A stretch of 55,381 bases of DNA from a virus: the IMG/VR virus record IMGVR_UViG_3300000302_000006, positions 1 to 55,381 of that record. One strand, given 5' to 3'. Of this stretch, positions 5,569-53,329 are shown one piece after another. A program made the translations under genes and the position numbers. Below the pieces are notes generated by a model that did no database searches, had not been told where the DNA came from, and was given only the letters and a program-made list of their open reading frames with translations. How positions within the stretch are numbered: position 1 is the first letter of the stretch; the number at the start of each line of letters is the position of its first letter.

Positions 5569-6147
5569 ATGACAAGAGAAGAAGCAAAACAGAATCTTAT
5601 TGCGCTCGGAATCGCAGAGCCGACAGATGAACAGGTTACAGGTTATTTAAATCAGTTCCATAATCAGCCGAAACCGAATCCGACACCAGCTCCTACACCA
5701 ACGCCGACACCGGCACCGGCTCCTACGCCACAACCGAATCCGACTCCCGAACCGACACCGGGAAGCGGAGAGGATATCGAAGCACTGAGAAATCAGATTG
5801 CAGAGCTTCAGCGTGAAAACGTTCAGAAAGATATTCGGGCATACGCGGCAGAAAAAGGACTGACAGGCGAACAGGCGGAGAAAGTGCTTGCTGGATTTAA
5901 GGATGATCTTGAATCGGCAAAAGCGGCAATTGATTCAATGTCAGAGATTATCTCAGCTAGAGAAACATCCGCTGCGCAGGCAAAAGAAAAAGAAATTCTT
6001 GATAAAAGCACGAATCCGGGCGGAGGTTCCGGCGGTTCAGGCGGCGGAGGAGACGATAAGCCGGAAGATGTGAAAAATGCAGAGCAAATCTCATTTGGAA
6101 GCAAAGCGGCAAATCAGTCTGAAAAAGATTATTACGTTATGAAATAA
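5569..6147 (+). CDS. scaffolding protein with Pro/Thr-rich linker
   Basis: GGAGG SD 8 nt upstream. Helical, acidic protein with PKPNPTPAPTPTPTPAPAPTPQPNPTPEPTP and a poly-Gly/Ser tract. Lies before the capsid gene. Confidence 0.7.
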   Translation: MTREEAKQNLIALGIAEPTDEQVTGYLNQFHNQPKPNPTPAPTPTPTPAPAPTPQPNPTPEPTPGSGEDIEALRNQIAELQRENVQKDIRAYAAEKGLTGEQAEKVLAGFKDDLESAKAAIDSMSEIISARETSAAQAKEKEILDKSTNPGGGSGGSGGGGDDKPEDVKNAEQISFGSKAANQSEKDYYVMK

Positions 6148-6160
6148 GGAGGTAAACACA

Positions 6161-6511
6161 ATGGGAAAACCGATTATCCATGAATACGGACAGGAAAAAG
6201 GAATTTTAAAATTTTTCCCGTATCAGGGCGCGGCTTGCGTTGTTCCGCAGAGTATGCAGTCCAGTGCTGATGCAAACGGATACAAGATCGTTCCTGCTGG
6301 TACGCCGTTTCCGTCAAATGATGCAAATTGCCTTGGATATCTGCTCCATTCAGTAGATGTAACTCAGGGAGATGCGCCGGGAACTTATGTTTTTGACGGA
6401 ACAATTGACTGGGAAAAGGTAAAGACCCTTTCACCTACGATTGCTGACGCGGCAAGAAAAGCGACTCCGAGAGTCACATTTTACGGAGCACCTGCAATAG
6501 CGGGGGAATAG
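6161..6511 (+). CDS. head decoration / head fibre-type protein (short form)
   Basis: 116 aa between scaffold and major capsid genes, with a strong SD. Confidence 0.6.
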   Translation: MGKPIIHEYGQEKGILKFFPYQGAACVVPQSMQSSADANGYKIVPAGTPFPSNDANCLGYLLHSVDVTQGDAPGTYVFDGTIDWEKVKTLSPTIADAARKATPRVTFYGAPAIAGE

Positions 6512-6882
6512 TATCTCCTGACATAGAAATACCGGCGGCAGGTCAGGAGTTATACGGTAAGACCGTTGGAGAGATGGTCGAGGACGGTATGAAAGTCCTT
6601 GAAGATGGGACTGTAAAAGGGACATTTAAGCATGTCACTGGATATACGGGTTTTAATGCGTCTGAACCGGATGAGCAAGAAGGATACTTTTTCCCGTTTT
6701 CGCTCAAGAACTCCGGTACAACAATGACATTTAAGAAAAACGGATCACCTGTGAAAGAAGGAATCGCATATGAAAAAGATAATGTTTTCCGGGTGACATC
6801 TTCAGACACATTTACAGTTTCAGTTGATAATGAGGATGTAATTACATTCAAATTCAATCAGGCAAATTTTAACGAAGAGTAA
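6448..6882 (+). CDS. -1 frame extension encoding an Ig-like domain, probably fused to 6161..6511 by ribosomal frameshifting
   Basis: The -1 frame is open from 6448. It has no ATG/GTG/TTG before 6574, and that ATG has no usable SD spacing. The translation (GTVKGTFKHVTGYTGFN...) looks like a phage Ig-like domain. Confidence 0.55.
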   Translation, partial: RGKKSDSESHILRSTCNSGGIVSPDIEIPAAGQELYGKTVGEMVEDGMKVLEDGTVKGTFKHVTGYTGFNASEPDEQEGYFFPFSLKNSGTTMTFKKNGSPVKEGIAYEKDNVFRVTSSDTFTVSVDNEDVITFKFNQANFNEE

Positions 6883-6900
6883 TAAAGGAGGTAAAGCACA

Positions 6901-7989
6901 ATGGCATTACCATTAAGAGATGCATTTACGGCAAGAAGTCTCGGAGTAATGTGGGACAACTATCAGGCTTCGCTTGGACTTCCGCCGTATCTTGGTCGGT
7001 CGAAGTTTGGAACACGAAAGCAGGACAGTCTTGATCTGAGATTCATTAAAGGGAAAAACGGGCTTCCGGTGTCACTGAAAGCATCCAATTTTGACGCACA
7101 GGCAGAATTAAGAGATGTTGGCGGATTTTCCGACATTCAGAATCAGATGCCGTTCTTCCGTGAAAGCTACATGGTTACCGAAAAAGAAGAACAGGAGTAC
7201 GCAAACTATCAGGCAGCGGAAAATTCCAGTATGGCAAATCAGGTTCTTAGAGAAATTGCTAAAAAGCCTATGATCCTGATTCAGGGGGCAACGGTTGTAC
7301 CGGAGCGTCATATCTGGCAGTTGCTTGCGCCGTCTGATGGAGTCCCGAAAGTAACCGTTAAAATTGGAGACAAGTCTTATACAGTTGATTACACCGCAGA
7401 CGCAGGCGTAGAGCACAAGAAAGATCACTTCATTGAGATTACAACATCAAATGATAAGTGGAGCGCATCAGCGACCGCTACTCCGCTTGATGATCTGATT
7501 GAAGCGAGAAGAGAGTTTGCGAAGAAAACAGGGTATTCACTTACCAGATTTTCTATGAATACAGAGACGTTTGAGTTGATTCTCAAAGCGGAAGATACCA
7601 AAAAGCAGGTTCTTGGAATCACAGCATATACAGGCGGAATCAGGCTGAGACAGGAAGATGTTCTGACTTATCTTCGTGGATATGGAATTGAGATTGAAGT
7701 GTACGACAAGATGTACATTGATGAAGACGGAGATACTCAGTATTTCATTCCGACAAATATTGTATCCGCTCAGTCAGCGGGCGTATATCTTGGAGATTAT
7801 GTATTCGGAAGAACACCGGAAGAGAGAAGCGGAAGTACAACAGACGGGAATCTGTCTATTGTAGAAACCGGTATTGCCGTGTATACATATCAGACAAATC
7901 ATCCGATCAACACACACTGCGTAGTTTCCATGATTGGACTTCCAACATTTGAGGGAATGGATAGTGTCGTTGTTATGAAAGTGGCATAA
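6901..7989 (+). CDS. major capsid protein (protein E-like family)
   Basis: 362 aa with a strong SD, downstream of the scaffold gene. N-terminal pattern resembles the major capsid protein E family. Confidence 0.85.
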   Translation: MALPLRDAFTARSLGVMWDNYQASLGLPPYLGRSKFGTRKQDSLDLRFIKGKNGLPVSLKASNFDAQAELRDVGGFSDIQNQMPFFRESYMVTEKEEQEYANYQAAENSSMANQVLREIAKKPMILIQGATVVPERHIWQLLAPSDGVPKVTVKIGDKSYTVDYTADAGVEHKKDHFIEITTSNDKWSASATATPLDDLIEARREFAKKTGYSLTRFSMNTETFELILKAEDTKKQVLGITAYTGGIRLRQEDVLTYLRGYGIEIEVYDKMYIDEDGDTQYFIPTNIVSAQSAGVYLGDYVFGRTPEERSGSTTDGNLSIVETGIAVYTYQTNHPINTHCVVSMIGLPTFEGMDSVVVMKVA

Positions 7990-10659: not shown

Positions 10660-10666
10660 GTAGAAC

Positions 10667-11026
10667 ATGAATAGTAGAACAATAAACATTTTAGGAACTG
10701 AATATACAATAAATTTTGTTGATAAGTTCCCTGATCATATGAGCGAATTTGAAGATAGCGCAGACGGATTATTCAACGGATTGAATCGGGAGATTTTTAT
10801 TCATACAAGAAATTCTCAACAGGATTTGACGGAATCTGGGAAGAAACAGGGCGTTAAAAGGTCTTTAAGGCATGAAATAATCCATGCTTTTTTATTTGAA
10901 AGTGGTCTTGGCTCTAACAGTTTAAATCATTATTCTGCATGGGCTGAAAATGAAGAAATGGTTGATTGGTTTGCTATTCAGTTACCGAAAATATTTAAGG
11001 TGTTTCAGGAACTGGACATTTTGTAG
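10667..11026 (+). CDS. HExxH metallopeptidase-like protein (ImmA/IrrE, M78-like)
   Basis: SLRHEIIHAFLFESGL motif. 119 aa. Confidence 0.55.
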   Translation: MNSRTINILGTEYTINFVDKFPDHMSEFEDSADGLFNGLNREIFIHTRNSQQDLTESGKKQGVKRSLRHEIIHAFLFESGLGSNSLNHYSAWAENEEMVDWFAIQLPKIFKVFQELDIL

Positions 11027-42919: not shown

Positions 42920-43135
42920 ATGAGATTAGGCAAGTATTTGTCCGAATTGACTAAGCCAGAACTTGAAGAATTAAAAGACCTTTTGAATCTTTCGGATGAT
43001 GAAATGGTGATATTTGAAAAGCTGTCGAATGGGAAAAGTATTGAAGAAATTTCAGACAAGTTGAAAATGTCATCAAGGACAGTTCAAAGACGAATTACAA
43101 ATATTAAAAACAAACTAGAAAGGGTGATTGAATGA
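42920..43135 (+). CDS. sigma-70 region-4 / LuxR-type HTH regulator
   Basis: LSDDEMVIFEKLSNGKSIEEISDKLKMSSRTVQRRITNIKNKL. Confidence 0.65.
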   Translation: MRLGKYLSELTKPELEELKDLLNLSDDEMVIFEKLSNGKSIEEISDKLKMSSRTVQRRITNIKNKLERVIE

Positions 43136-43329
43136 CACAAAGTGTTCCAATATGGGAAAAAGTGACGCTGACAATCGAAGAAGCAAGCGAATATTCCAAC
43201 ATTGGCGAAAAATCAATCCGAGAAGCGTTGAAAAATCCGTCATGCCCTTTTGCTTTTTCTGTTGGCAGGAAGTCATTAATCAAACGTAAAGAATTTGATA
43301 ATTATATATCAAAGCATAGCGAACTGTGA
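43132..43329 (+). CDS. xis: excisionase (MerR-like HTH_17)
   Basis: LTIEEASEYSNIGEKSIREAL... Adjacent to int. Confidence 0.7.
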   Translation: MTQSVPIWEKVTLTIEEASEYSNIGEKSIREALKNPSCPFAFSVGRKSLIKRKEFDNYISKHSEL

Positions 43330-43380
43330 TTGAATTATAAGCCTTGTATGATATAATTGGCATACGAGGCTTTTCTTTTT
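43330..43380 (+). promoter_or_regulatory. 12-bp-stem terminator whose loop contains an extended -10 promoter (putative Pint)
   Basis: Stem 43339-50/43361-72 followed by a T-rich tract. TTGAAT 43330-35, TG 43349-50, TATAAT 43352-57. Confidence 0.55.
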
Positions 43381-43393
43381 AAGGAGTATCATT

Positions 43394-44584
43394 ATGGGAA
43401 AGGATTTGAAAGGAAAAGAACTTGGTGTAGGATTATCACAAAGAAAGGATGGTGTTTATCAGGCGAGATATATCGATAGATGGGGGAAAAGAAAAACCAT
43501 CTATGGTAAAAGTATAAGGGAATTGCGTAAAGAATTGTCGATAGCAATTTCCGAAAATGAAACATTCACAAGTGTTAGAGAAAAAGTAACACTGGACGAG
43601 TGGTTCAAACAATGGATGGAAGTATACAAAGAAAAAAGCATAAGACCAAATACAAAAAGAGAATATACATACATATATGAGAAGAATATCTCTCCGTATA
43701 TTGGCGGAAGATACTTAAATTCACTTGTAAAAACAGATGTGCAGCGGTTGATCGACACGGCGTATGATTTGGGGTATCAGTATGAACGCCAGAACAAAAT
43801 AAAAATAGTATTACGAGATATGCTACAAAGAGCTTTTGAAGATCATCTGGTATCTGGAAATCCTGTCAGCGGAATAAAGCTGAGATCAGACAAGACCATA
43901 AAGGCAAAGGCATTGGCTCTTGAAGAACAAAATGTATTTTTTGAATATTGCCGGAACACGTTTTATGACAATCTCTTTAATGTGGCAGTAAATACAGGAT
44001 TACGACCGGGAGAGCTATTTGCTCTTCAATTATCGGATATAGACATGGAGAATGGCTACATAGATGTAAATAAGACGCTTGTATATCAAAAGTATTTGAC
44101 AGATACTCGCAAGACATTTCACATGGAACCGCCAAAAACAAAGCAGAGTTACAGGAAAGTTCCAATCAACAGCGTGTGCCGAATATATCTGGAAAGACAG
44201 TTTGAATTAAAGAAAATTATATCAGAGAAACGGCCAAAGCAGCAAAACAATTATTTGTTTGTCACAAAATTTAATACGCCTTTAAATTCTGTTATTTACT
44301 CAGATGCGATCAAGTCGGTTATTCGTCAAATAAACCTTATGAGATCAAAGGAGAATCAGTTTCCGGTATTCAGCGGTCATACGTTTAGGCATACGTTTGC
44401 GACAAGGTGCTTTGAAAATGGTATAGAGCCGAAAGTGGTTCAGTCATATTTAGGTCATGCCAGTTTGAAAATGACAATGGATTTGTACACTCATGTTACG
44501 GATGCTAAATCATCCTATGATATTGAAAAAATCGTGCCAGACTTCAATGATAATTTGATTGATTTCAGGTCAAAAATATCATAA
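43394..44584 (+). CDS. int: tyrosine integrase
   Basis: 396 aa. SGHTFRHTFATRCF...LGHASLKMTMDLYTHV (R-H-R-Y catalytic pattern). Confidence 0.9.
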   Translation: MGKDLKGKELGVGLSQRKDGVYQARYIDRWGKRKTIYGKSIRELRKELSIAISENETFTSVREKVTLDEWFKQWMEVYKEKSIRPNTKREYTYIYEKNISPYIGGRYLNSLVKTDVQRLIDTAYDLGYQYERQNKIKIVLRDMLQRAFEDHLVSGNPVSGIKLRSDKTIKAKALALEEQNVFFEYCRNTFYDNLFNVAVNTGLRPGELFALQLSDIDMENGYIDVNKTLVYQKYLTDTRKTFHMEPPKTKQSYRKVPINSVCRIYLERQFELKKIISEKRPKQQNNYLFVTKFNTPLNSVIYSDAIKSVIRQINLMRSKENQFPVFSGHTFRHTFATRCFENGIEPKVVQSYLGHASLKMTMDLYTHVTDAKSSYDIEKIVPDFNDNLIDFRSKIS

Positions 44585-44587
44585 AAT

Positions 44588-44884
44588 TGGTGTAGTAATG
44601 GTGTAGTAGATCAATAAAAATGGTGTAAAAGTAACGTATTTACGGCGTTTGTAGCGTGTTTTATATTGAAACTGGCTGAATTATTATGTATATCAGGCAA
44701 CGCCGTATGACCTTTATAAAGTAGATAAATAAACGCTGAAAAACCTTGAAAATACGCCATTTCAAGAGTTTATGATATTATTTCTCAAAAACATATACTC
44801 GGCATAAACTGGCATATTTTGGCATAAATTGGTGTAAAAATGGTGTAGTAAATGGTGTAGTAAGTTATTTTAAATGGTGTAGTA
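44588..44884 (+). repeat. attP region: seven same-orientation TGGTGTA(G/A)(T/A)A arm-type repeats flanking about 200 bp
   Basis: Three copies on the left at 44588, 44599 and 44621. Four copies on the right at 44830, 44841, 44853 and 44875. Confidence 0.7.
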
Positions 44885-44925: not shown

Positions 44926-44958
44926 GTCATTAACATGGCGGTTTTACCGTCTTTTTTT
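44926..44958 (+). terminator. hairpin plus T7 terminator
   Basis: GCGGTAA ... TTACCGT followed by CTTTTTTT. Confidence 0.5.
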
Positions 44959-44992: not shown

Positions 44993-45160
44993 ATGTTTAC
45001 GGACGAGTTCTTAGAGAAAATTTTTTCTCACCCGGAAATGCAGAAAATTCCAATTGGATGCCAGTCAACGGCAGTCCATGTGTTTCAAGAAGTCTTAGAG
45101 GAAATAAAGGAGGAAAATCCTTATGCAAACATATCAACCATATTATCCGCAAATGAATAA
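44993..45160 (+). CDS. cassette protein 1 (55 aa)
   Basis: My own translation. AAGGAGG SD. Confidence 0.5.
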   Translation: MFTDEFLEKIFSHPEMQKIPIGCQSTAVHVFQEVLEEIKEENPYANISTILSANE

Positions 45161-45650
45161 TTACAATCAACAGTATAATCCGCAACAGCCGTATATGGAA
45201 CGGTTATCAGGATTACAGCAGTTTCAGCAGAGTCTTCAGGCACAGCAACCGCAACAGTCGCAACAGCCACAACAGCAGTTTCAGCAAATACCTGTCGGAA
45301 TCAGCGGACGAATCGTTCCAAACGCAGAAAGTATAGCAGCGAATGACGTTCCTATGGACGGATCAGTGGCTTTCTTTCCTATGCAGGATATGTCACAGAT
45401 ACTTGCAAAATCGTGGAACGCTGACGGAACGATTAAAACGGTTGTTTATAAGCCTTTCGTTGAAACCCCGAGCAATTTATCAAAAGCAAACGAAAAATTA
45501 AATGTGGGGCTTTCTGATGATGTTACACAGGCTTTTATGCAGAGGTTTGATGATATTGCAAATCGCATATCAAATTTAGAACAGTCGTTGTCTAAGCCTT
45601 CAACTAGGACAACAGTTTCTAAAACGAAAAAGGAGGCAGGAGAGGCATGA
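45123..45650 (+). CDS. cassette protein 2, Gln/Tyr/Pro-rich N-terminus
   Basis: 23 Gln in the first 55 residues, followed by a globular C-terminal half. Confidence 0.65.
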   Translation: MQTYQPYYPQMNNYNQQYNPQQPYMERLSGLQQFQQSLQAQQPQQSQQPQQQFQQIPVGISGRIVPNAESIAANDVPMDGSVAFFPMQDMSQILAKSWNADGTIKTVVYKPFVETPSNLSKANEKLNVGLSDDVTQAFMQRFDDIANRISNLEQSLSKPSTRTTVSKTKKEAGEA

Positions 45651-45889
45651 ATCCACTCTTGAATATAATTCAGGCGTTTCAAAATCCGCAGGCGCTTATT
45701 CAAAACATGATGAATAATCAGCAGATTATGAACAGCCCGATTGGAAATGCAGTAAATGCCGCAAGTAAAGGAGATCAGAAAACACTTGAAGAAATTGCAC
45801 GAAATATGTGCAAAGAAAAGGGCATTAATCCTGATGATGCCTTCAATCAGGTAAAACAGATGATGAATGGGAATATGCCAAAACAATAA
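45647..45889 (+). CDS. cassette protein 3 (80 aa, Asn/Gln/Met-rich)
   Basis: ATGA-coupled ORF. Confidence 0.55.
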   Translation: MNPLLNIIQAFQNPQALIQNMMNNQQIMNSPIGNAVNAASKGDQKTLEEIARNMCKEKGINPDDAFNQVKQMMNGNMPKQ

Positions 45890-45964
45890 TTGAACATATT
45901 GAGGTTGAGCGCTCAATAAAAACCGGTTCCTCTTTATGGATATAAAATTAAGGAGGACACCAAT

Positions 45965-46753
45965 ATGTTTAATTCAAATGATTGTTTTACTATGCCGGTT
46001 ATGCCCGCATATTCTGGTGGATATGGCAACGCTAACGGCATGTGGGGAGACGGCGGCTGGATTTGGCTGATCGTGATTCTTGGACTCTTTGGAGGCTGGG
46101 GAGGCTTTGGCGGATTCGGCAGAGGCTATGGGAATTATGCAAATTCACCGGATTTTCAGGGATATGCTACCAGAGCTGATATCAATGAGGGATTTGCTTT
46201 CAACGGCTTACAGCGTGACGTAGATGCAATTCAGCATGGTATCTGTGACAGCACTTATGCACTGAATAACACGATCAACAGCGGTTTCCACAGCACAGAC
46301 ATGGCTCTTTGCAATGGGTTTAACGGAGTTCAGACGCAGATTTCCAATCTCGGATATCAGCTTCAGGACTGCTGCTGCCAGACGCAGCGCGCTATTGATG
46401 GCGTAAACTATAACATGGCAACAAACACATCTGCGCTCCAGAACACGATGAACAACAACGCTCGTGATATCATCGACAATCAGAACGCAGGCACAAGAGC
46501 AATCCTTGACTTCTTAACTCAGGACAAGATTTCTTCTCTTACAGCAGAAAATCAGGCTCTTAAGTTCCAGGCAAGTCAGACAGCTCAGAACGCATTTATT
46601 ACAGCAAATCAGGAGGCACAGACAGCAGAACTTATCCGCAGACTCGGTGCAGACTGCCCGCAGCCGGCATATGTTGTTCAGCCACCGACTCCTGTAAACT
46701 TCCCGACAAATTGCTGCGGAACATTTTCGGGATATAACGGCTGTGGTTGCTAA
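45965..46753 (+). CDS. cassette protein 4: Gly/Trp-rich TM anchor, Cys clusters, Asn/Gln-rich coiled region
   Basis: WIWLIVILGLFGGWGGFGGFG, QDCCCQTQ, C-terminal NCCGTFSGYNGCGC. AGGAGG SD. Confidence 0.7.
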   Translation: MFNSNDCFTMPVMPAYSGGYGNANGMWGDGGWIWLIVILGLFGGWGGFGGFGRGYGNYANSPDFQGYATRADINEGFAFNGLQRDVDAIQHGICDSTYALNNTINSGFHSTDMALCNGFNGVQTQISNLGYQLQDCCCQTQRAIDGVNYNMATNTSALQNTMNNNARDIIDNQNAGTRAILDFLTQDKISSLTAENQALKFQASQTAQNAFITANQEAQTAELIRRLGADCPQPAYVVQPPTPVNFPTNCCGTFSGYNGCGC

Positions 46754-46968
46754 TGATTAACAATCCGAATTTCTATAATCAACTTACCTTGCTCGATACA
46801 TTTTTGCAAATTATGACTATGGTCATGGTCTCAGAAGATGCGACAAACAATGACCTGATGTCTGAATTGCAGAAACAAGATCGGGATTATCTTGAAAAGA
46901 TTATTGAAAACCAAAATCAAATATTGAGTATGTTATCCGAATTAAAGGATATGTCTGCTACTGATTAG
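46753..46968 (+). CDS. cassette protein 5 (71 aa)
   Basis: TAATG-coupled ORF. Confidence 0.5.
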   Translation: MINNPNFYNQLTLLDTFLQIMTMVMVSEDATNNDLMSELQKQDRDYLEKIIENQNQILSMLSELKDMSATD

Positions 46969-47040
46969 CAGTCTTACAAAACTGAGGGCAGACTTTTGTA
47001 TAAGGTTTGCCCTTTATATTTAAAGATGGAGGATATTAAA

Positions 47041-47460
47041 ATGGCAGAATTTACATCAATTTTTATTCAGCAGGTAGAATCCCGTCAGAACGCGCTTCTT
47101 ACCGAGGACACTGTGAGAAGCCGGTGCGTAAATCACCGAAGCGGTTCAGGACTTGTTTGTGTGGCAAATAGCGGAACAGACTGTAACCCGGCAAGATATA
47201 GAGTATACGCAAAAGCAAATATCGCAATCCCGACAGGCGGAACGGTCGGCCCGATTTCTCTTGCACTTGCCCTGAATGGAGAAGTTCTCCAGAGCTCCCT
47301 TGCAACAGTAACTCCGGCCGCAGTAGAAGATTTCTTTAATGTTTCTTTTGAGGAAATTATCTGTGCCGGAAAATGCCCTGTAAACCTTGCAGTCGTGAAC
47401 CCTAACGCTCAGACGATTGAAGTCGAAAACTTAACGCTCATTGTCGAGCGCGAGTGCTAG
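47041..47460 (+). CDS. cassette protein 6: 139-aa beta-rich, six-Cys protein (C1q/TNF-like jelly-roll suspected)
   Basis: GGAGGA SD. Pattern YRVYAKANIAIP..GPISLALALNGEVL...NLTLIVERE. Confidence 0.65.
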   Translation: MAEFTSIFIQQVESRQNALLTEDTVRSRCVNHRSGSGLVCVANSGTDCNPARYRVYAKANIAIPTGGTVGPISLALALNGEVLQSSLATVTPAAVEDFFNVSFEEIICAGKCPVNLAVVNPNAQTIEVENLTLIVEREC

Positions 47461-47473
47461 GAGGTGAACGGTT

Positions 47474-48193
47474 ATGCATATTAAACATATCAGATGTATC
47501 GAAGAGAAACTGGCAGAAGCGATCAAGTGCGAGTTTGAAAAAGGTATTGACAAAGTTAATACATCGGAAATGGGTAAGGCAACAGATATGCTGAAAGATG
47601 CAGCAGAGGCAGAGTATTACGCACGGATCGCTAAAGCTATGGAAGAGGCAGAAAAAGAAGACGAAGAATCTCAGAAGTATATGCTGAAACAGCTCAAAGA
47701 AGAGTACGGCGAAGATGACGGCAGACGGTATTATGACAACTACCGTTACATGAGGACGGGCAGATTCGCACCAAAAGGACGCGGAACCTATATGCCGCGC
47801 CGTGGTTACGAAACACCGATTGAATACCACATGACACCGGAAATGTACCGTGAGCATGACCCTGAGTATTACCGGGACATGGACCGGGATATGGGGCGTA
47901 TGTACTATACGGAAACCGGAATGCGCGGAAATATGGGAAATTCCAGTCGGACCGGAAACGGCGGTATGCGTGACGGCAGAGAGGGCAGAAGCGGCGCAAG
48001 TAGACGTTCTTATATCGAAACAAAAGAAATGCATCCTGATAACAGTCAGGAAAGCAAGCAGATGAAAATGAAAGAGCTTGAAAAGTATATGGGAGAGTTG
48101 TCTGGAGACATTACTGAAATGATCGCCGGAGCAAGCAATGAGGAAAAAACCATGCTGAAAGCAAAGCTTCAGACTTTAATGCAGAAAATCTAA
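47474..48193 (+). CDS. cassette protein 7: helical ends with Tyr/Arg/Met/Asp/Gly-rich core
   Basis: RRYYDNYRYMRTGR...EYYRDMDRDMGRMYY. AGGAGG SD. Confidence 0.65.
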   Translation: MHIKHIRCIEEKLAEAIKCEFEKGIDKVNTSEMGKATDMLKDAAEAEYYARIAKAMEEAEKEDEESQKYMLKQLKEEYGEDDGRRYYDNYRYMRTGRFAPKGRGTYMPRRGYETPIEYHMTPEMYREHDPEYYRDMDRDMGRMYYTETGMRGNMGNSSRTGNGGMRDGREGRSGASRRSYIETKEMHPDNSQESKQMKMKELEKYMGELSGDITEMIAGASNEEKTMLKAKLQTLMQKI

Positions 48194-48228: not shown

Positions 48229-48251
48229 AGGGGCTGTTTCAGCCCCTTTTT
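48229..48251 (+). terminator. rho-independent terminator
   Basis: AGGGGCTG-TTT-CAGCCCCT followed by T5. Confidence 0.8.
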
Positions 48252-48266
48252 ATTTGAGGTGGAAGA

Positions 48267-48593
48267 ATGTTTCAAGTAAACGGATTAAATTGGCGTATAA
48301 GCCTTGTAGAGCCTCACAGCCATATGCTGAGACGGTCGGACAGGAGTTATACAGTCGGAATGTGTGATAGAACAGAACAAACAATTTATGTTTCTTCTGC
48401 ATTACAAGGAGAATTTTTAAGAAAGGTTCTTATACACGAAGTTTGTCATTCGGCAATGATGAGTTATGGAATCATAATGAGTATAGAACAAGAAGAGCTA
48501 TTCTGTGATTTAATTGCAACATACGGTGATGAAATATTTGAAATCGCAGACAGAGTATTTGCGGCATTAAATCAAAATAGGATAGTGGCATAA
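48267..48593 (+). CDS. HExxH metallopeptidase-like protein (ImmA/IrrE, M78-like)
   Basis: VLIHEVCHSAMMSYG. Confidence 0.6.
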   Translation: MFQVNGLNWRISLVEPHSHMLRRSDRSYTVGMCDRTEQTIYVSSALQGEFLRKVLIHEVCHSAMMSYGIIMSIEQEELFCDLIATYGDEIFEIADRVFAALNQNRIVA

Positions 48594-48594
48594 G

Positions 48595-48623
48595 TAGGGC
48601 GGAGAAAAATCTGCCCTATTTTT
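48595..48623 (+). terminator. rho-independent terminator
   Basis: TAGGGCGG ... CTGCCCTA followed by T5. Confidence 0.7.
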
Positions 48624-48693
48624 ATTTGGAGTATTGACTTATTGTGCGCACTATAATATAATTGATGTGCGAACGGGAAGTGAGGTGATGAAT

Positions 48694-48867
48694 ATGTCGC
48701 CAAGGACTGGAAGACCAAAGTCTGACAATCCAATGAACGAAAGAATGTTTATTCGTGTCACAAAAGAAGAAAAAGAAGAAATTATGCAATTTTCCAAGGA
48801 CAGTGGATATACACTTCTTGAGTTAATTAAAATTGGGATTGAAAAGGTAAAAAGTCTAAAAAAATAG
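48694..48867 (+). CDS. ribbon-helix-helix protein (CopG/MobC-like)
   Basis: RTGRPKSDNPMNERMFIRVTKEEKEEIMQFSKDSGYTLLELIKIGI. Confidence 0.6.
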   Translation: MSPRTGRPKSDNPMNERMFIRVTKEEKEEIMQFSKDSGYTLLELIKIGIEKVKSLKK

Positions 48868-50166: not shown

Positions 50167-50748
50167 ATGCGTAAGACCGCGAAACAAATTTTTTCAATTC
50201 CTAAAATTCAGAAAGTAGGAATTTATGCGATAAGGAATAAGAAAACTAACAAATATTATATTGGTTCTAGCGTTAATGTTTATAGCAGAATGCTTACACA
50301 TGCCAGAAATATAATTCGTTTCGGTGGAATTAATGAGACTATGGCTAAAGATATAAACGGGAAAAGAGATTTTAAAAATATTGAGTTTATTGTATTAAAA
50401 ACCTTCGAAGATGGAACTATAACAGACAAACAATTAAGGGAAGAAGAGTCAGAAATGTTTAAAAAATATGATTCCATGAATAACGGTTATAATATACAAT
50501 ACACTCATGGAAATGGTAAATTTAACCCAGACGAAAAACTATTCTGCAAGCCTATAACGAATAAATCTAAGGAACAAAATTTTGATGAATTTGTCTTAAG
50601 ACTCCCAGAAGGATCAAAGGAAATTATGGATCAACTTCATGTTGTAAATTATAATGCTTTTATTTACGACATTGTGATTAAAGAATTAAACAGAATTCAG
50701 ACACTAAGAGTAATAGCAGAACAGGCAGAGAACAACCCCGGCGAATAA
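50167..50748 (+). CDS. GIY-YIG nuclease fused to a C-terminal RHH-like domain
   Basis: VGIYAIRNKKTNKYYIGSSVNVYSRMLTH. The C-terminal FVLRLPEGSKEIMDQL...IVIKELNRI aligns by eye to the upstream RHH protein. Confidence 0.7.
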   Translation: MRKTAKQIFSIPKIQKVGIYAIRNKKTNKYYIGSSVNVYSRMLTHARNIIRFGGINETMAKDINGKRDFKNIEFIVLKTFEDGTITDKQLREEESEMFKKYDSMNNGYNIQYTHGNGKFNPDEKLFCKPITNKSKEQNFDEFVLRLPEGSKEIMDQLHVVNYNAFIYDIVIKELNRIQTLRVIAEQAENNPGE

Positions 50749-52651: not shown

Positions 52652-53329
52652 ATGAATTTATTCTTTGATACAGAATTTACAGGACTTCACCAAAATACAA
52701 CTCTAATCAGTATCGGGATTGTGTCTGAGGATAACAAAAAGTTTTATGCGGAATTTGCTGATTTTGACATAGATCAATGTAATAACTGGATTAAGGAAAA
52801 TGTTCTGCGCAACTTATATCTTCCAAAACTTTCAGGAAAAGATACACTTAGAGAAACATGGGATGAAATAGACCGATGGAAAAAGAATGGATATTTAGTT
52901 GTGGATGGATGTACAGTGGCAAACAAGTGGTTTGGAAATGTTTATCCGACATGTAAGACAAATGGTAATGTAAAAGAAGTTGTTGGAGATAAGTCATGGG
53001 TAAATGCTTGTTTGCAAGATTGGCTCTCAGAATTTGACACCATTCAGTTTGTATCAGATGTTTGCCATTACGATTTCATTCTTCTGATTAACTTGATTAC
53101 ATACGGCGGAACGGCAATTGATTTACCTGAAACAATTTCGGCAGTGTGCCATGATATTAATCAGGATATTGCGAATCACTTCCGTGTATGTGATGCAAAA
53201 GCATTTGATATGAGTCGCGAACAGATTATGAATGATTTGTGCGGTTCTGAAAATGTTGTAACTGGTAATAAGCACAATAGTTTGTATGATGCGGAGGTTA
53301 TCAAAGCGATATGGGAGCAGATTCATTAA
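52652..53329 (+). CDS. DEDDh 3'-5' exonuclease (DnaQ/KapD-like)
   Basis: Exo I FFDTEFTG and Exo III HNSLYDAEV motifs. Confidence 0.75.
   Translation: MNLFFDTEFTGLHQNTTLISIGIVSEDNKKFYAEFADFDIDQCNNWIKENVLRNLYLPKLSGKDTLRETWDEIDRWKKNGYLVVDGCTVANKWFGNVYPTCKTNGNVKEVVGDKSWVNACLQDWLSEFDTIQFVSDVCHYDFILLINLITYGGTAIDLPETISAVCHDINQDIANHFRVCDAKAFDMSREQIMNDLCGSENVVTGNKHNSLYDAEVIKAIWEQIH

Follow-up and report, generated by a model that had tools for sequence, protein, structure and literature searches.

Seven genes beside a viral attachment site are one copy of a widespread, mobile accessory module that encodes a predicted fibrous protein and a TNF/C1q-like jelly roll

Introduction

The virus record IMGVR_UViG_3300000302_000006, of which a stretch of 55,381 nucleotides was analysed (the window), carries seven co-oriented genes between attP and a strong terminator (p1 to p7), and the composition of their products is extreme. 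The question raised by this locus is what these proteins form, and at which stage of the viral life cycle. The original prediction was that a prophage employs them to alter the surface or the spore of its host.

Results

Gene content and borders of the cassette

All seven plus-strand reading frames were found where they had been predicted (Table 1). A GGAGG-type ribosome-binding site precedes six of them, p1 and p2 overlap by 38 nt, p2 and p3 by 4 nt, and the ATG of p5 overlaps the stop codon of p4. The peculiarities of composition noted earlier (the Gln of p2, the motifs of p4 and p7 and the Cys of p6) were all recovered from the translations. Compared to the 46 other proteins of the window, the z-scores amounted to +8.5 for Gln in p2, to +6.2, +6.1 and +5.2 for Asn, Gln and Met in p3, and to +5.1 and +4.6 for Met in p5 and p7, respectively. 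The cassette genes are not chance reading frames, since p2, p4 and p6 each have hundreds to thousands of homologues and the gene order is kept over some 70 loci.

Searches of Pfam, PHROG and PADLOC agreed with the initial impression that p1 to p7 match no characterised virion, lysis, replication or defence family, and PADLOC returned no match for any other member of the module described below. Sequence similarity to the GerQ, CotG, CotY/ExsY and BclA families was absent in Pfam and the PDB. By eye, no signal peptide was seen on p2, p3, p6 or p7. An enzymatic domain is recognisable in no module member, except for an optional small protease-like protein.

Table 1. Coordinates of the cassette and its flanking features in the window.
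Feature	Position	Strand	Description
sig	42920-43135	+	71-aa stand-alone GerE/LuxR-type (sigma region-4-like) HTH regulator
Excisionase	43132-43329	+	phrog_16129, 3e-20; context gene between regulator and module
Tyrosine integrase	43394-44584	+	Phage_integrase, 2e-28; Tn916-type N-terminus; context gene
attP region	44584-44881	.	Arm-type direct repeats (AATGGTGTAGTA...) at 44584-44627 and 44826-44881
Hairpin + T7	44937-44958	+	Immediately upstream of p1
p1	44993-45160	+	55-aa acidic helical protein; ORF and RBS
p2	45123-45650	+	Core member; phrog_21718, 7.5e-7
p3	45647-45889	+	80-aa Met/Asn/Gln-rich helical protein, repeated NP..Q.M motifs
p4	45965-46753	+	Hallmark of the module; phrog_16490, 2.6e-90
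p5	46753-46968	+	71-aa Met/Leu/Asn-rich helical protein, start/stop-coupled to p4
Internal hairpin	46984-47014	+	Between p4/p5 and p6
p6	47041-47460	+	Stand-alone TNF/C1q-like jelly roll, 6 Cys; phrog_20016, 2e-62
p7	47474-48193	+	Helices at both termini, with an Arg/Gly/Tyr/Met/Asp low-complexity core between them
Terminator-like hairpin	48229-48256	+	Strong, intrinsic type; after p7; 8-bp stem, 6 GC
p8	48267-48593	+	108-aa HExxH protein, SprT-like or PolyVal-type metallopeptidase-like

The predicted attP-type arm repeats are present between the integrase gene and the cassette, as are the bracketing hairpin with its T-run, located at 44937-44951, and the downstream terminator, located at 48229-48247. 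Ten terminator-like sites were observed in the region versus 3.4 expected, and a search upstream of p1 identified no promoter. The functional unit exceeds the seven genes: it includes that of the GerE-type regulator (Pfam GerE, E=9e-9, 35 bits, above the cut-off; phrog_36, transcriptional regulator) and probably p8. The regulator is the usual upstream partner of the module, but in the window a xis-int-attP block has been inserted between it and p1; in Dulem virus 39 a serine recombinase occupies the xis/integrase slot. In 36 of 65 loci the distance from the end of a homologous small HTH gene to the downstream p2 is below 1 kb, irrespective of where the module is located. Both module borders show an enrichment of terminator-like hairpins, with 21 of 65 loci having one within 460 nt upstream (about 5% expected), and an equivalent of the internal hairpin with a T-run lies directly 5' of p6 or its substitute p6b in more than 20 loci.

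The proteins of the module

The family of p4 comprises 2,596 clusters at 50% identity and at least 8000 at 90% identity. The protein has a Gly/Asn-rich N-terminus, followed by a conserved, Trp-flanked hydrophobic core (mean KD 2.4 over 13 residues), a helical stalk of about 150 residues (73-115 and 124-228 in the AF2 secondary structure) that carries a CCC motif invariant across homologues, a Pro-rich linker and a terminal Cys cluster; the motifs WIWLIVILGLFGGWGGFGGFG, QDCCCQTQ and NCCGTFSGYNGCGC are located at residues 32, 134 and 249. The core is short and has no flanking Lys or Arg, and is therefore perhaps not a transmembrane anchor. The periodicity of the helix is 3.64 and not 3.5, i.e. 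there is no heptad signal, and it is coherent over 155 residues. The protein is nearly devoid of Lys and Glu. Residues 81-161 gave a weak match to apolipophorin-III (E=0.008), a similarity too weak to be regarded as homology. Confidence in the AF2 model of p4 is low overall (pLDDT 55).

For p6, the guess of a stand-alone jelly roll of the C1q/TNF type, as in the BclA C-terminus, was borne out by the AF2 model (pLDDT 91, pTM 0.84), for which Foldseek gave the C-terminal domain of F-BclA as best match (1.7e-7, TM 0.75), followed by ExsFA, BxpB and the BclA C-terminal domain, and then by TNF/C1q; the structure was also searched against BFVD. The p6 family holds more than 5000 clusters. In 24 other loci its place is taken by p6b, a Cys-rich beta protein for which hhalign found no relation to p6 and which, judged by sequence, is apparently unrelated. 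Cys makes up 4% of p4, 4% of p6 and about 7% of p6b.

The Pro/Tyr/Gln-rich, prion-like N-terminus of p2 (23 Gln in the first 55 residues) is followed by a conserved core of about 55 aa that is globular, then by a helix and a tail rich in Lys. The protein was present in 65 of 72 sources, its subtype comprises 876 clusters, every one annotated as 'hypothetical', and a profile of its alignment (A4) found no Pfam or PDB relative. The architecture of p7, with RRYYDNYRYMRTGR at residue 84 and EYYRDMDRDMGRMYY at 131, is conserved in the gene that follows p6, and relatives match phrog_28802; p7 occurs in 47 loci and is replaced in 16 by p7b, which combines a low-complexity region with DUF7841 (1.6e-34). 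The smaller proteins are less general. Homologues of p1, which had no family match in Pfam or PHROG, are limited to the closest relatives of the window (9 loci), p3 is present in 35 loci and p5 is optional (12 loci, C. perfringens phages among them). The sole PDB match of p3 (alignment A10) was 'Gogy' (7bqq), presumably a de novo designed protein. Finally, p8 (Pfam SprT-like, 1.4e-4, under the cut-off; DUF6782, 1e-3) is a frequent last gene of the module variant with p1 and lies 3' of p7 in loci L001, L004, L067 and L069; elsewhere this slot is filled by phrog_3754 or another small family.

Distribution and genomic context

What the window carries in these seven genes is its copy of a viral accessory module that is dispensable and moves horizontally. 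The order of the module reads: GerE-type regulator, small Cys/His protein, p2, (p3), p4, (p5), p6 or p6b, p7 or p7b, small protease-like gene. The co-occurrence of the cassette families in other viral genomes that had been asked after was indeed found, in about 70 loci. The families involved (PHROGs 21718, 16490, 20016, 28802 and 3754, and Pfam DUF7841) have no known function.

The module recurs in thousands of gut viruses of Gram-positive bacteria, of Bacteroides and, apparently, of archaea. The hosts, many of them Clostridia, further include Bacilli, Bacteroidota and Methanomassiliicoccales, and the carriers are both sipho- and podoviruses. It is carried by C. perfringens phages, and the module or its p4-centred core by the Butyrivibrio virus Ceridwen (only lytic growth seen, no integrase), by a cultured Bacteroides uniformis phage, by viruses assigned to Methanomassiliicoccales and by many Crassvirales of Bacteroidota, in which it lies directly 3' of the holin gene. 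The crAss-like phages are, as far as is known, virulent, and the host of Ceridwen is not known to form spores.

The position of the module varies between the prophage edge, a site after endolysin/holin and the interior of the head genes. The proposed moron-type position holds for three integrated relatives, at three different insertion sites, where the cassette is the first prophage unit beside host genes. In the Suoliviridae the module is situated among virion genes, directly 3' of the holin gene and an i-spanin-type (LysB-like) gene, and 7 loci have, upstream of the module, a gene for a small membrane protein resembling XhlA (a weak match, E=0.13). At least 8 loci, and also Dulem virus 35, have the module between minor head protein and major capsid protein, and locus L068 has it between capsid and connector genes. 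Other copies are found in early or recombination regions, remote from structural genes, and at accessory islands adjoining antirepressor genes. Among phages whose terminases are related, its occurrence is patchy.

Discussion

We tentatively propose, as a possible reading, that the module specifies an accessory stalk-and-knob assembly that does not depend on the type of host envelope, is produced in the course of productive infection and has its effect on or at a membrane, around the time of lysis or egress. The fibrous p4 would be the abundant product, with the hairpin 3' of its gene probably dampening expression of the downstream genes, and would consist of a Gly/Trp-flanked hydrophobic segment, a helical stalk with a repeat of the 11-residue type bearing the CCC, and a flexible Pro/Cys-rich tip. 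Either p6 or p6b would serve as a small beta-rich, Cys-rich cap, p6 of the window being a TNF-like knob of the ExsFA/BclA type that is presumably trimeric. The prion-like region and small domain of p2, and the low-complexity region of p7, may make these proteins multivalent partners, and the Met-rich helices of p3 and p5 may shield the hydrophobic segment of p4. All would be made in the cytoplasm, and the layer, held to the lipid membrane via p4, would act regardless of the type of host wall. The copy at a prophage edge might be expressed in lysogens as well; lysogenic conversion would not be the general role.

Several observations argue for such a membrane-held layer: the regulator, the border terminators and the hairpin after p4, the conserved order, the varied position and patchy presence, the conserved hydrophobic core, the periodicity of p4 with its apolipophorin-III match, the proximity to holin, i-spanin and XhlA-like genes, and the lack of visible signal peptides. 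The breadth of hosts and carriers points to a target that every cell has, such as the lipid membrane, and away from reliance on one virion type. Against it count the shortness of the p4 core, its missing charges and the low pLDDT, the richness in Cys, the placement among virion genes, the lack of an identified promoter and of any experimental datum on a family member in the literature, and the fact that TNF/C1q-like domains in phages almost always belong to the external parts of virion fibres.

The latter point leads to the main rival, a virion appendage, which we regard as possible, if doubtful. Trimers of p4 would form the stalk of a fibre or BclA-like 'hair' with p6 or p6b as distal knob, attached to capsid, neck or tail by the hydrophobic plug, with p2, p3, p5 and p7 as adaptors or assembly chaperones and the Cys clusters cross-linking once the virion is released. 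Its function would face the surroundings in the gut (adhesion to mucus or particles, or stability), which would account for the sharing of the module by unrelated viruses from the same habitat. The fibrous p4, the knob-like fold of p6, the labels 'viral fiber' or 'spike' given to crAss homologues by GenBank annotators, the positions among head and other virion genes and a hydrophobic segment without the charges typical of a membrane anchor all fit, as do Cys-rich proteins without a visible signal peptide, and the high Cys content is explained more easily by a structure that works outside the cell. An appendage is difficult to reconcile with a regulator and border terminators that persist even inside late operons, with copies at prophage edges and far from structural genes, and with carriers whose capsids and tails are unrelated, so that a generic attachment site would be needed. 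Moreover, prion-like and Arg/Tyr low-complexity proteins are unusual for virions, and no module protein has a structural annotation in PHROG or Pfam. Superinfection exclusion or anti-phage defence, in which a p4-based membrane layer blocks DNA entry or the assembly of competitors to the benefit of lysogens and infected cells alike, seems improbable. It accords with the positions at prophage edges and beside antirepressor genes, the regulator, the patchy distribution and the possible membrane segment. However, PADLOC came out negative, an effector-type enzymatic domain is absent, the fixed position next to the holin across a whole crAss-like family is atypical of a defence island, and the exclusion systems known to us are single small membrane proteins or lipoproteins. 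Least probable is a prophage-expressed conversion cassette for a cross-linked spore coat, exosporium or surface layer, with the GerE-type regulator possibly controlling its expression in the mother cell. The prophage edge at three integration sites, the structural neighbours of p6, the GerE architecture, the Gln-, Tyr- and Cys-rich compositions and the many clostridial hosts speak for it, but a sequence relation to coat or exosporium families is absent, many phages have the module inside lytic-cycle operons, and the lack of a visible signal peptide makes assembly of p6 on the exterior of a living cell unlikely. As a general explanation it fails on Ceridwen, the Crassvirales, the Bacteroides phage and the archaeal viruses, and is thus largely refuted by host range.

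Among the closest known systems is the exosporium nap of Bacillus (BclA/F-BclA with the anchor ExsFA/BxpB). The jelly-roll fold of p6 is the same (TM 0.72-0.75), p6 stands alone as ExsFA/BxpB does, it is paired in the module with a long stalk protein and Cys-, Gln- and Tyr-rich partners, and the absence of visible signal peptides implies synthesis in the cytoplasm, as for coat proteins. Yet identity is merely 7-13% without a Pfam relationship, the stalk is alpha-helical and not collagen-like, p6 can be swapped for p6b with no detectable homology between the two, and the module is virus-encoded, with non-spore-forming Bacteroidota and archaea among its hosts. Phage fibres and needles with a TNF-like knob (the phi812 central spike knob, 9eul, and the short tail fibre of cyanophage A-1(L), 8ke9) likewise combine a helical stalk and a knob and were among the structural matches of p6, and the tail-needle knob of Sf6 is a further example with a distal TNF-like knob. 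In the module, however, stalk and knob are on separate polypeptides, the module has no fixed place in the tail or head gene order, and it brings a dedicated regulator, partners of low complexity and an N-terminal segment that is hydrophobic. With the spanins (Rz or P2 LysB-type i-spanin plus Pro-rich o-spanin) p4 shares the N-terminal hydrophobic segment, long helices, Cys and a Pro-rich end, and the Suoliviridae position fits; but no lipobox partner was seen by eye, the flanks of p4 lack a positive-inside signal, the hosts of most carriers are monoderm and have no need of a spanin, and crAss genomes already carry a LysB-like protein adjoining the module. Exchangeable apolipoproteins, perilipins and other 11-mer binders of lipid surfaces resemble p4 in hydrophobic periodicity, but amphipathic helices of class A carry many charges, while p4, nearly free of Lys and Glu, adds Cys clusters and a hydrophobic core segment. 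Morons and lysogenic-conversion cassettes, finally, share the prophage edge, the border terminators, the dispensability and the mobility between genome positions, but the module has 6 to 9 genes and a dedicated regulator, and is also kept in virulent phages and within late operons. In view of its distribution, the module is a common viral device and not the spore-coat system of the original prediction.

Organization and composition of the cassette

All seven plus-strand genes of the cassette (p1-p7) were found where the original prediction had placed them, together with a hairpin plus T7 ahead of p1, a strong terminator after p7 and the attP region, which is bracketed by arm-type direct repeats and adjoins the cassette. 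The genes of an excisionase and a tyrosine integrase lie upstream. Ribosome-binding sites of the GGAGG type precede six of the seven genes, p1 overlaps p2, p2 overlaps p3, and p5 starts on the stop codon of p4. No convincing promoter was found between the hairpin at 44937 and p1. The unusual compositions reported for the proteins proved equally accurate, including the 23 Gln in residues 1-55 of p2, three motifs in p4, six Cys in p6 and two motifs in p7. Compared with the 46 other proteins of the window the bias is extreme, with a z-score of +8.5 for Gln in p2 and of more than +5 for each of Asn, Gln and Met in p3; p5 and p7 are likewise rich in Met. Long antisense ORFs over p2-p3 and p7 were set aside by judgement as by-products of the biased composition. 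Downstream of the module, ahead of the packaging genes, lie a homing endonuclease gene and an RNase H-like gene.

Coordinates of the cassette and of associated features in the window and in related module loci
Feature	Sequence	Position	Strand	Remark
Second ORF found with p8 profile	window	10664-11026		head-tail region
sig gene	window	42920-43135		GerE-type regulator
sig to integrase	window	42920-44584		tyrosine recombinase, xis, attP
sig to integrase	L001 (Dulem virus 39)	6121-7861		465-aa serine recombinase
Hairpin plus T7	window	44926-44958		ahead of p1
p1	window	44993-45160	+	
p2	window	45123-45650	+	
p3	window	45647-45889	+	
p4	window	45965-46753	+	
p5	window	46753-46968	+	
p6	window	47041-47460	+	
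p7	window	47474-48193	+	
Antisense ORF	window	45446-45916	-	156 aa, over p2-p3
Antisense ORF	window	47438-48034	-	198 aa, over p7
Hairpin after p4/p5	window	46984-47014		
Hairpin after p4/p5	L010	10839		
Hairpin after p4/p5	L025	4142		
Hairpin after p4/p5	L038	10748		
Terminator	window	48229-48251		after p7
p8	window	48267-48593		108 aa, HExxH
Terminator-like hairpin	window	48592-48621		after p8
p8 to repressor-like gene	window	48267-48867		77-aa repressor-like gene, phrog_876
Homing endonuclease	window	50167-50748		GIY-YIG type, phrog_7168 (2e-11)
RNase H-like gene	window	52652-53329		phrog_2259 (3e-42)
Antirepressor	L061	10267-10986		
Antirepressor	L062	3655-4362		
Antirepressor	L063	4319-5011		
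Antirepressor	L067	11647-12363		
Antirepressor	L068	7031-7786		
Antirepressor	L077	2655-3539		
XhlA-like protein	L002	6271-6552		
XhlA-like protein	L006	8269-8592		
XhlA-like protein	L020	5292-5585		
XhlA-like protein	four more loci			

A conserved module with a fixed gene order

From reference genomes, annotated phages and metagenomic contigs 57 loci were assembled, and their six-frame ORFs were searched with iterated profiles. When co-occurrence was checked over 72 sources, p2, p4, p6, p7 and their partners were found to recur together in the fixed order [sig]-[chd]-p2-(p3)-p4-(p5)-p6/p6b-p7/p7b-[d2c/chd/p8], in which p6b and p7b replace p6 and p7 in other loci. The unit is thus larger than the seven genes initially recognized. 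In these sources p4 is found 72 times, p2 65, p7 47, p6 43, chd 39, p3 35, p6b 24, d2c 21, p7b 16, p5 12, and p1 and p8 nine times each; of these, p1, p5 and p8 are optional and typically seen in the close relatives of the window. The families are large: p4 has at least 8000 clusters at 90% identity and, by an exhaustive profile search, 2,596 at 50%, and p6 has more than 5000 clusters.

The impression that p1-p7 resemble no recognised family held. Scans of p1-p8 against Pfam, NCBIfam, PHROGs and PADLOC returned no functional family. The p2, p4 and p6 proteins fall in PHROGs 21718, 16490 and 20016, none of which has a named member; all PHROGs of the module carry the label 'unknown function'. 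Among the PADLOC-DB 2.0 defence models no component matched, the only hits being two weak ones at chance level (p3, 0.02; p8, 0.002). Sequence and profile searches of the PDB with p2, p6, p6b, p7b and phrog_3754 found nothing, and the sole match of p3, 'Gogy' (7bqq), presumably a de novo designed protein, is uninformative.

Of the flanking members, the d2c proteins are helical and about 108 aa long. The chd family (phrog_3754; about 125 aa), which is absent from the window, occurs at either end of the module and has invariant residues D18, C19, R22 and G95 and nearly invariant H96 and D107, without a match in Pfam or the PDB. These residues were compared with the Cys-His(-Asp) triad of papain-like/C39-like cysteine peptidases, of which chd may be a relative. 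The p8 protein is SprT-like below the Pfam cut-off. Its slot is elsewhere taken by the Cys-His-Asp protein of phrog_3754, and in Bacteroides phage C3_41T2LP a 'PolyVal metallopeptidase' ends the module, so that the small protease-like gene at this end looks like a case of non-orthologous replacement. Iteration of the p8 profile brought in a further ORF, from the head-tail part of the window, which may reflect profile drift or a second small HExxH-like protein.

Structural features of the module proteins

The conjecture that p6 is a stand-alone jelly roll of the TNF/C1q type, as in the C-terminal domain (CTD) of BclA, was borne out by AlphaFold and Foldseek. The AF2 model is confident (pLDDT 91, pTM 0.84) and its best PDB match is the F-BclA CTD (9h38; E=1.7e-7, TM 0.75). 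Further top matches are ExsFA (7r1m), BxpB (8d02) and BclA (1wck), with TM values of about 0.7-0.75 among the best, followed by members of the TNF and C1q families and some phage fibre knobs; in BFVD, near-identical folds are found in uncharacterised gut phage proteins. The similarity does not extend to the sequence: no homology to the BclA CTD or ExsFA-BxpB was detected, Pfam gave no match at E<1 beyond noise, phmmer and profile searches of the PDB returned nothing relevant, and identity in the structural alignments is 7-13%. No relation between p6 and p6b was found by hhalign. The Bacillus exosporium nap, in which BclA or F-BclA sits on ExsFA/BxpB, is the closest structural analogue in the fold of one component, but the module has no collagen stalk, does not belong to the sequence family and is not confined to spore formers. 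Moreover, no match of p1-p7 to the GerQ, CotG or CotY/ExsY families was found in Pfam or NCBIfam. The literature searched on phage-encoded exosporium/BclA proteins, on the cultured carriers and on the family accessions held neither functional nor proteomic results.

The AF2 model of p4 (pLDDT 55, pTM 0.21) is too poor for a fold search, and only the secondary structure was used. Here both ends are predicted to be disordered, the Gly-rich N-terminus, which includes a hydrophobic helix of 12 residues, and the Pro/Cys tail, and residues 73-115 and 124-228 between them to form helices (pLDDT 75-83). Kept across the family are the hydrophobic core with its flanking Trp, the CCC motif, a linker (PTPVNFPTNCCG, VPNPNCCYG or VPAPYPY) and a terminal GCGCGC-type cluster. 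Hydrophobicity along the stalk has a period of 3.64, and power at 3.5 is absent, which rejects a strict heptad coiled coil and points to an 11-residue-type repeat; the only PDB match in sequence and profile searches, a weak one to apolipophorin-III, agrees with this. As the flanks of the hydrophobic core carry almost no Lys or Arg (K+R about 0.5 on both), a classical membrane anchor is not established, and a positive-inside analysis is uninformative with both sides uncharged. In spanins, positive-inside flanks of the N-terminal TMD and a lipobox-bearing partner lipoprotein are defining, and neither was seen in the module; inspection by eye showed no lipobox-bearing small ORF among its members. 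The hosts of the carriers are mostly monoderm. In general, the module shares single features with TNF-knobbed phage fibres, with spanins and with amphipathic helices of the apolipoprotein type, but the full set of traits that defines each of these was not found in it.

In p2 the Pro/Tyr/Gln-rich N-terminus, with its Sup35-like QQYNPQ motifs, leads into a core of about 55 aa that is conserved, followed by a helix and a tail rich in Lys; 58 family members scanned singly against Pfam gave only scattered coiled-coil noise. The p7 and p7b proteins share an Arg/Tyr/Gly/Ser/Asp low-complexity region beside differing helical domains, and p7b has the Pfam domain DUF7841. Neither DUF7841 nor the PHROG accessions were mentioned in the literature searched.

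Genomic position and associated regulator

The moron position proposed for the cassette is supported by the location of attP between the integrase gene and p1 and by three integrated relatives (L064, L067 and L069), where, at three different insertion sites, the module is the first prophage unit beside host genes. When the attP region of the window was aligned with the prophage junctions of L064 and L069, no common att core emerged, since the integration modules differ between these phages. The prophage-edge position is not universal. Dulem virus 35 and at least eight loci have the module between their minor head and major capsid proteins; elsewhere it lies between capsid and connector genes, with an antirepressor, in L068, after holin and endolysin in bajarodcaudo virus 5 and at least five further loci, and between antirepressor and recombination genes in Clostridium perfringens phages. 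Terminator-like hairpins are enriched at the borders, upstream in 21 of 65 loci (5% expected) and downstream in 9 of 63 (3% expected), and p4 is present in some and absent from other phages with related terminases. Considering the variable positions, the border hairpins and the patchy presence, the module is a mobile, dispensable unit that often has its own regulator. Another hairpin directly follows p4/p5, before p6/p6b, in more than 20 loci; its recurrence suggests that p4 is made in excess over p6 and p7.

Antirepressor genes (Bro-N/ANT/KilA) adjoin the module in six otherwise unrelated phages. In seven loci a small membrane protein (about 95 aa) that weakly resembles the lysis-associated XhlA (E=0.13) is encoded just upstream.

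The regulator gene sig encodes a small helix-turn-helix protein of the GerE/sigma-region-4 type; in 36 of the 65 loci the end of the gene is within 1 kb upstream of p2. In the window it is a stand-alone protein of about 70 aa that passes as a GerE/LuxR-type member (Pfam GerE, 35.2 bits against a cut-off of 23.5), whereas homologues elsewhere score as GerE or Sigma70_r4, mostly under the cut-offs. Since sig accompanies the module whether this lies among head genes, among lysis genes or at a prophage edge, a role simply as general late activator of the phage was rejected. The excisionase, integrase and attP block separates sig from p1 in the window, and in Dulem virus 39 a serine recombinase gene occupies the same place, which suggests that the slot has been captured independently by different integration modules.

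Distribution over hosts

The carriers extend far beyond phages of spore formers. Butyrivibrio virus Ceridwen, for which only lytic growth has been seen and which has no integrase, carries sig, chd, p2, p4, p6, p7 and d2c; its host is not known to form spores. In the Crassvirales cr109_1 and cr4_1 an unmistakable p4 (HMM E=7e-54), carrying the segment GGWWWIWIILIFFCWGG, the motif NCCCTTQRSIDGVN and an NCGC cluster at its C-terminus, directly follows a holin and a LysB/FtsL-like gene. Its neighbour is a DUF7841 protein (1e-47) that ends in an Arg/Tyr tail, and cr4_1 also has a weak p6b match (2.6e-7) there; the p4 block is also kept in other Suoliviridae. Several annotated genes of cr109_1 and cr4_1 (L070 and L071), the p4 homologue included, contain in-frame stop codons under table 11, which would fit stop-codon recoding in this group of Crassvirales. 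A search started from the crAss protein found p4 in 44 phage records, among them those of Intestiviridae, of the Bacteroides uniformis phage C3_41T2LP, which is in culture, of csAssE-Sib, a phage of 151 kb, and of two viruses assigned to Methanomassiliicoccales. The wider module of Crassvirales, the Bacteroides phage and archaeal viruses has p6b in place of p6. In these distant loci the protein after p4 is small and beta-rich; it bears Cys in C3_41T2LP and csAssE-Sib, whereas that of the Intestiviridae phage cr271_1 does not. In those of bacterial viruses the next protein, of about 165-190 aa, has a beta domain and a C-terminal coiled coil, and weakly matches the p2 HMM in C3_41T2LP and cr1_1 only.

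Given this host range, a function tied to endospores, Gram-positive envelopes or lysogeny cannot explain the distribution. Of the original interpretation, the position, the p6 fold and the absence of known families stand, whereas the building of a spore layer and lysogenic conversion as a general role do not. In temperate phages the module behaves like a moron, yet it is also conserved in virulent phages.

Possible function of the module

As a unit the module is conserved, mobile and dispensable and usually has its own regulator gene; its proteins are non-enzymatic, p6 is TNF-like, and p4 is fibrous with a hydrophobic segment and Cys clusters. We tentatively favour a cell-level assembly, attached to a lipid membrane and acting around lysis or egress, as a possible function. 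The distribution follows neither host type nor virion type, the regulator and border hairpins are retained even inside late operons, the module adjoins the holin throughout a crAss family, and p4 combines its conserved hydrophobic segment with an apolipoprotein-like helix periodicity, all of which argue for such an assembly. In it p4 and p6 would form a stalk and knob, p2 and p7 may serve as multivalent low-complexity partners, and p3 and p5 could shield the hydrophobic segment of p4. The main rival, a virion appendage, is nearly as probable: it would account for the TNF-like fold of the knob, the fibre-like shape of the stalk, the abundance of Cys, the weak membrane-anchor signature of p4 and the location among head or virion genes in some genomes. 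In other genomes the module lies elsewhere.

Compared with the membrane-attached assembly and the virion appendage, superinfection exclusion appears unlikely, and the spore or envelope conversion originally proposed is highly improbable with hosts that reach beyond spore formers. The rest of the probability we leave to functions we have not thought of and to a virus-encoded material-forming system, specific for the gut habitat and working regardless of host type, for which the chances seem slim. In such a system a layer or gel would be nucleated by p4 stalks with p6 as their cap. Within it p2, through its Tyr/Gln prion-like region, and p7, through its Arg/Tyr/Gly region, might join in a condensate-like manner via Tyr-Arg contacts, and the many cysteines would provide a disulfide lock once the layer is outside the reducing cell or the anoxic gut. 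The product could be a protective or adhesive matrix, spore-coat-like or occlusion-body-like, around virions or lysis debris; if so, it would aid transmission between animal hosts.

Significance

The module fits no described kind of phage system, although it would belong to a known kind after all if it proved to be a virion fibre. If it is what it appears to be, one of the commonest multi-gene units of the gut virome is without a known function. The unit is common to phages of Clostridia and crAss-like phages and, apparently, to viruses of archaea. Its components are of kinds unusual in viruses, namely a knob like that of BclA/ExsF, a helical stalk that is not built of heptads and has an invariant CCC motif, a prion-like region resembling that of Sup35 and an Arg/Tyr low-complexity protein. 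Butyrivibrio virus Ceridwen, the C. perfringens phages CPD1 and XP41-N3 and Bacteroides phage C3_41T2LP are cultured carriers and make the module directly testable. Phage genome annotation would gain a new functional category once the role is worked out, whether as a coat on the membrane at lysis, a nap on the virion or a protective matrix, and a strikingly habitat-linked sharing of genes across viruses of different host domains would be explained.
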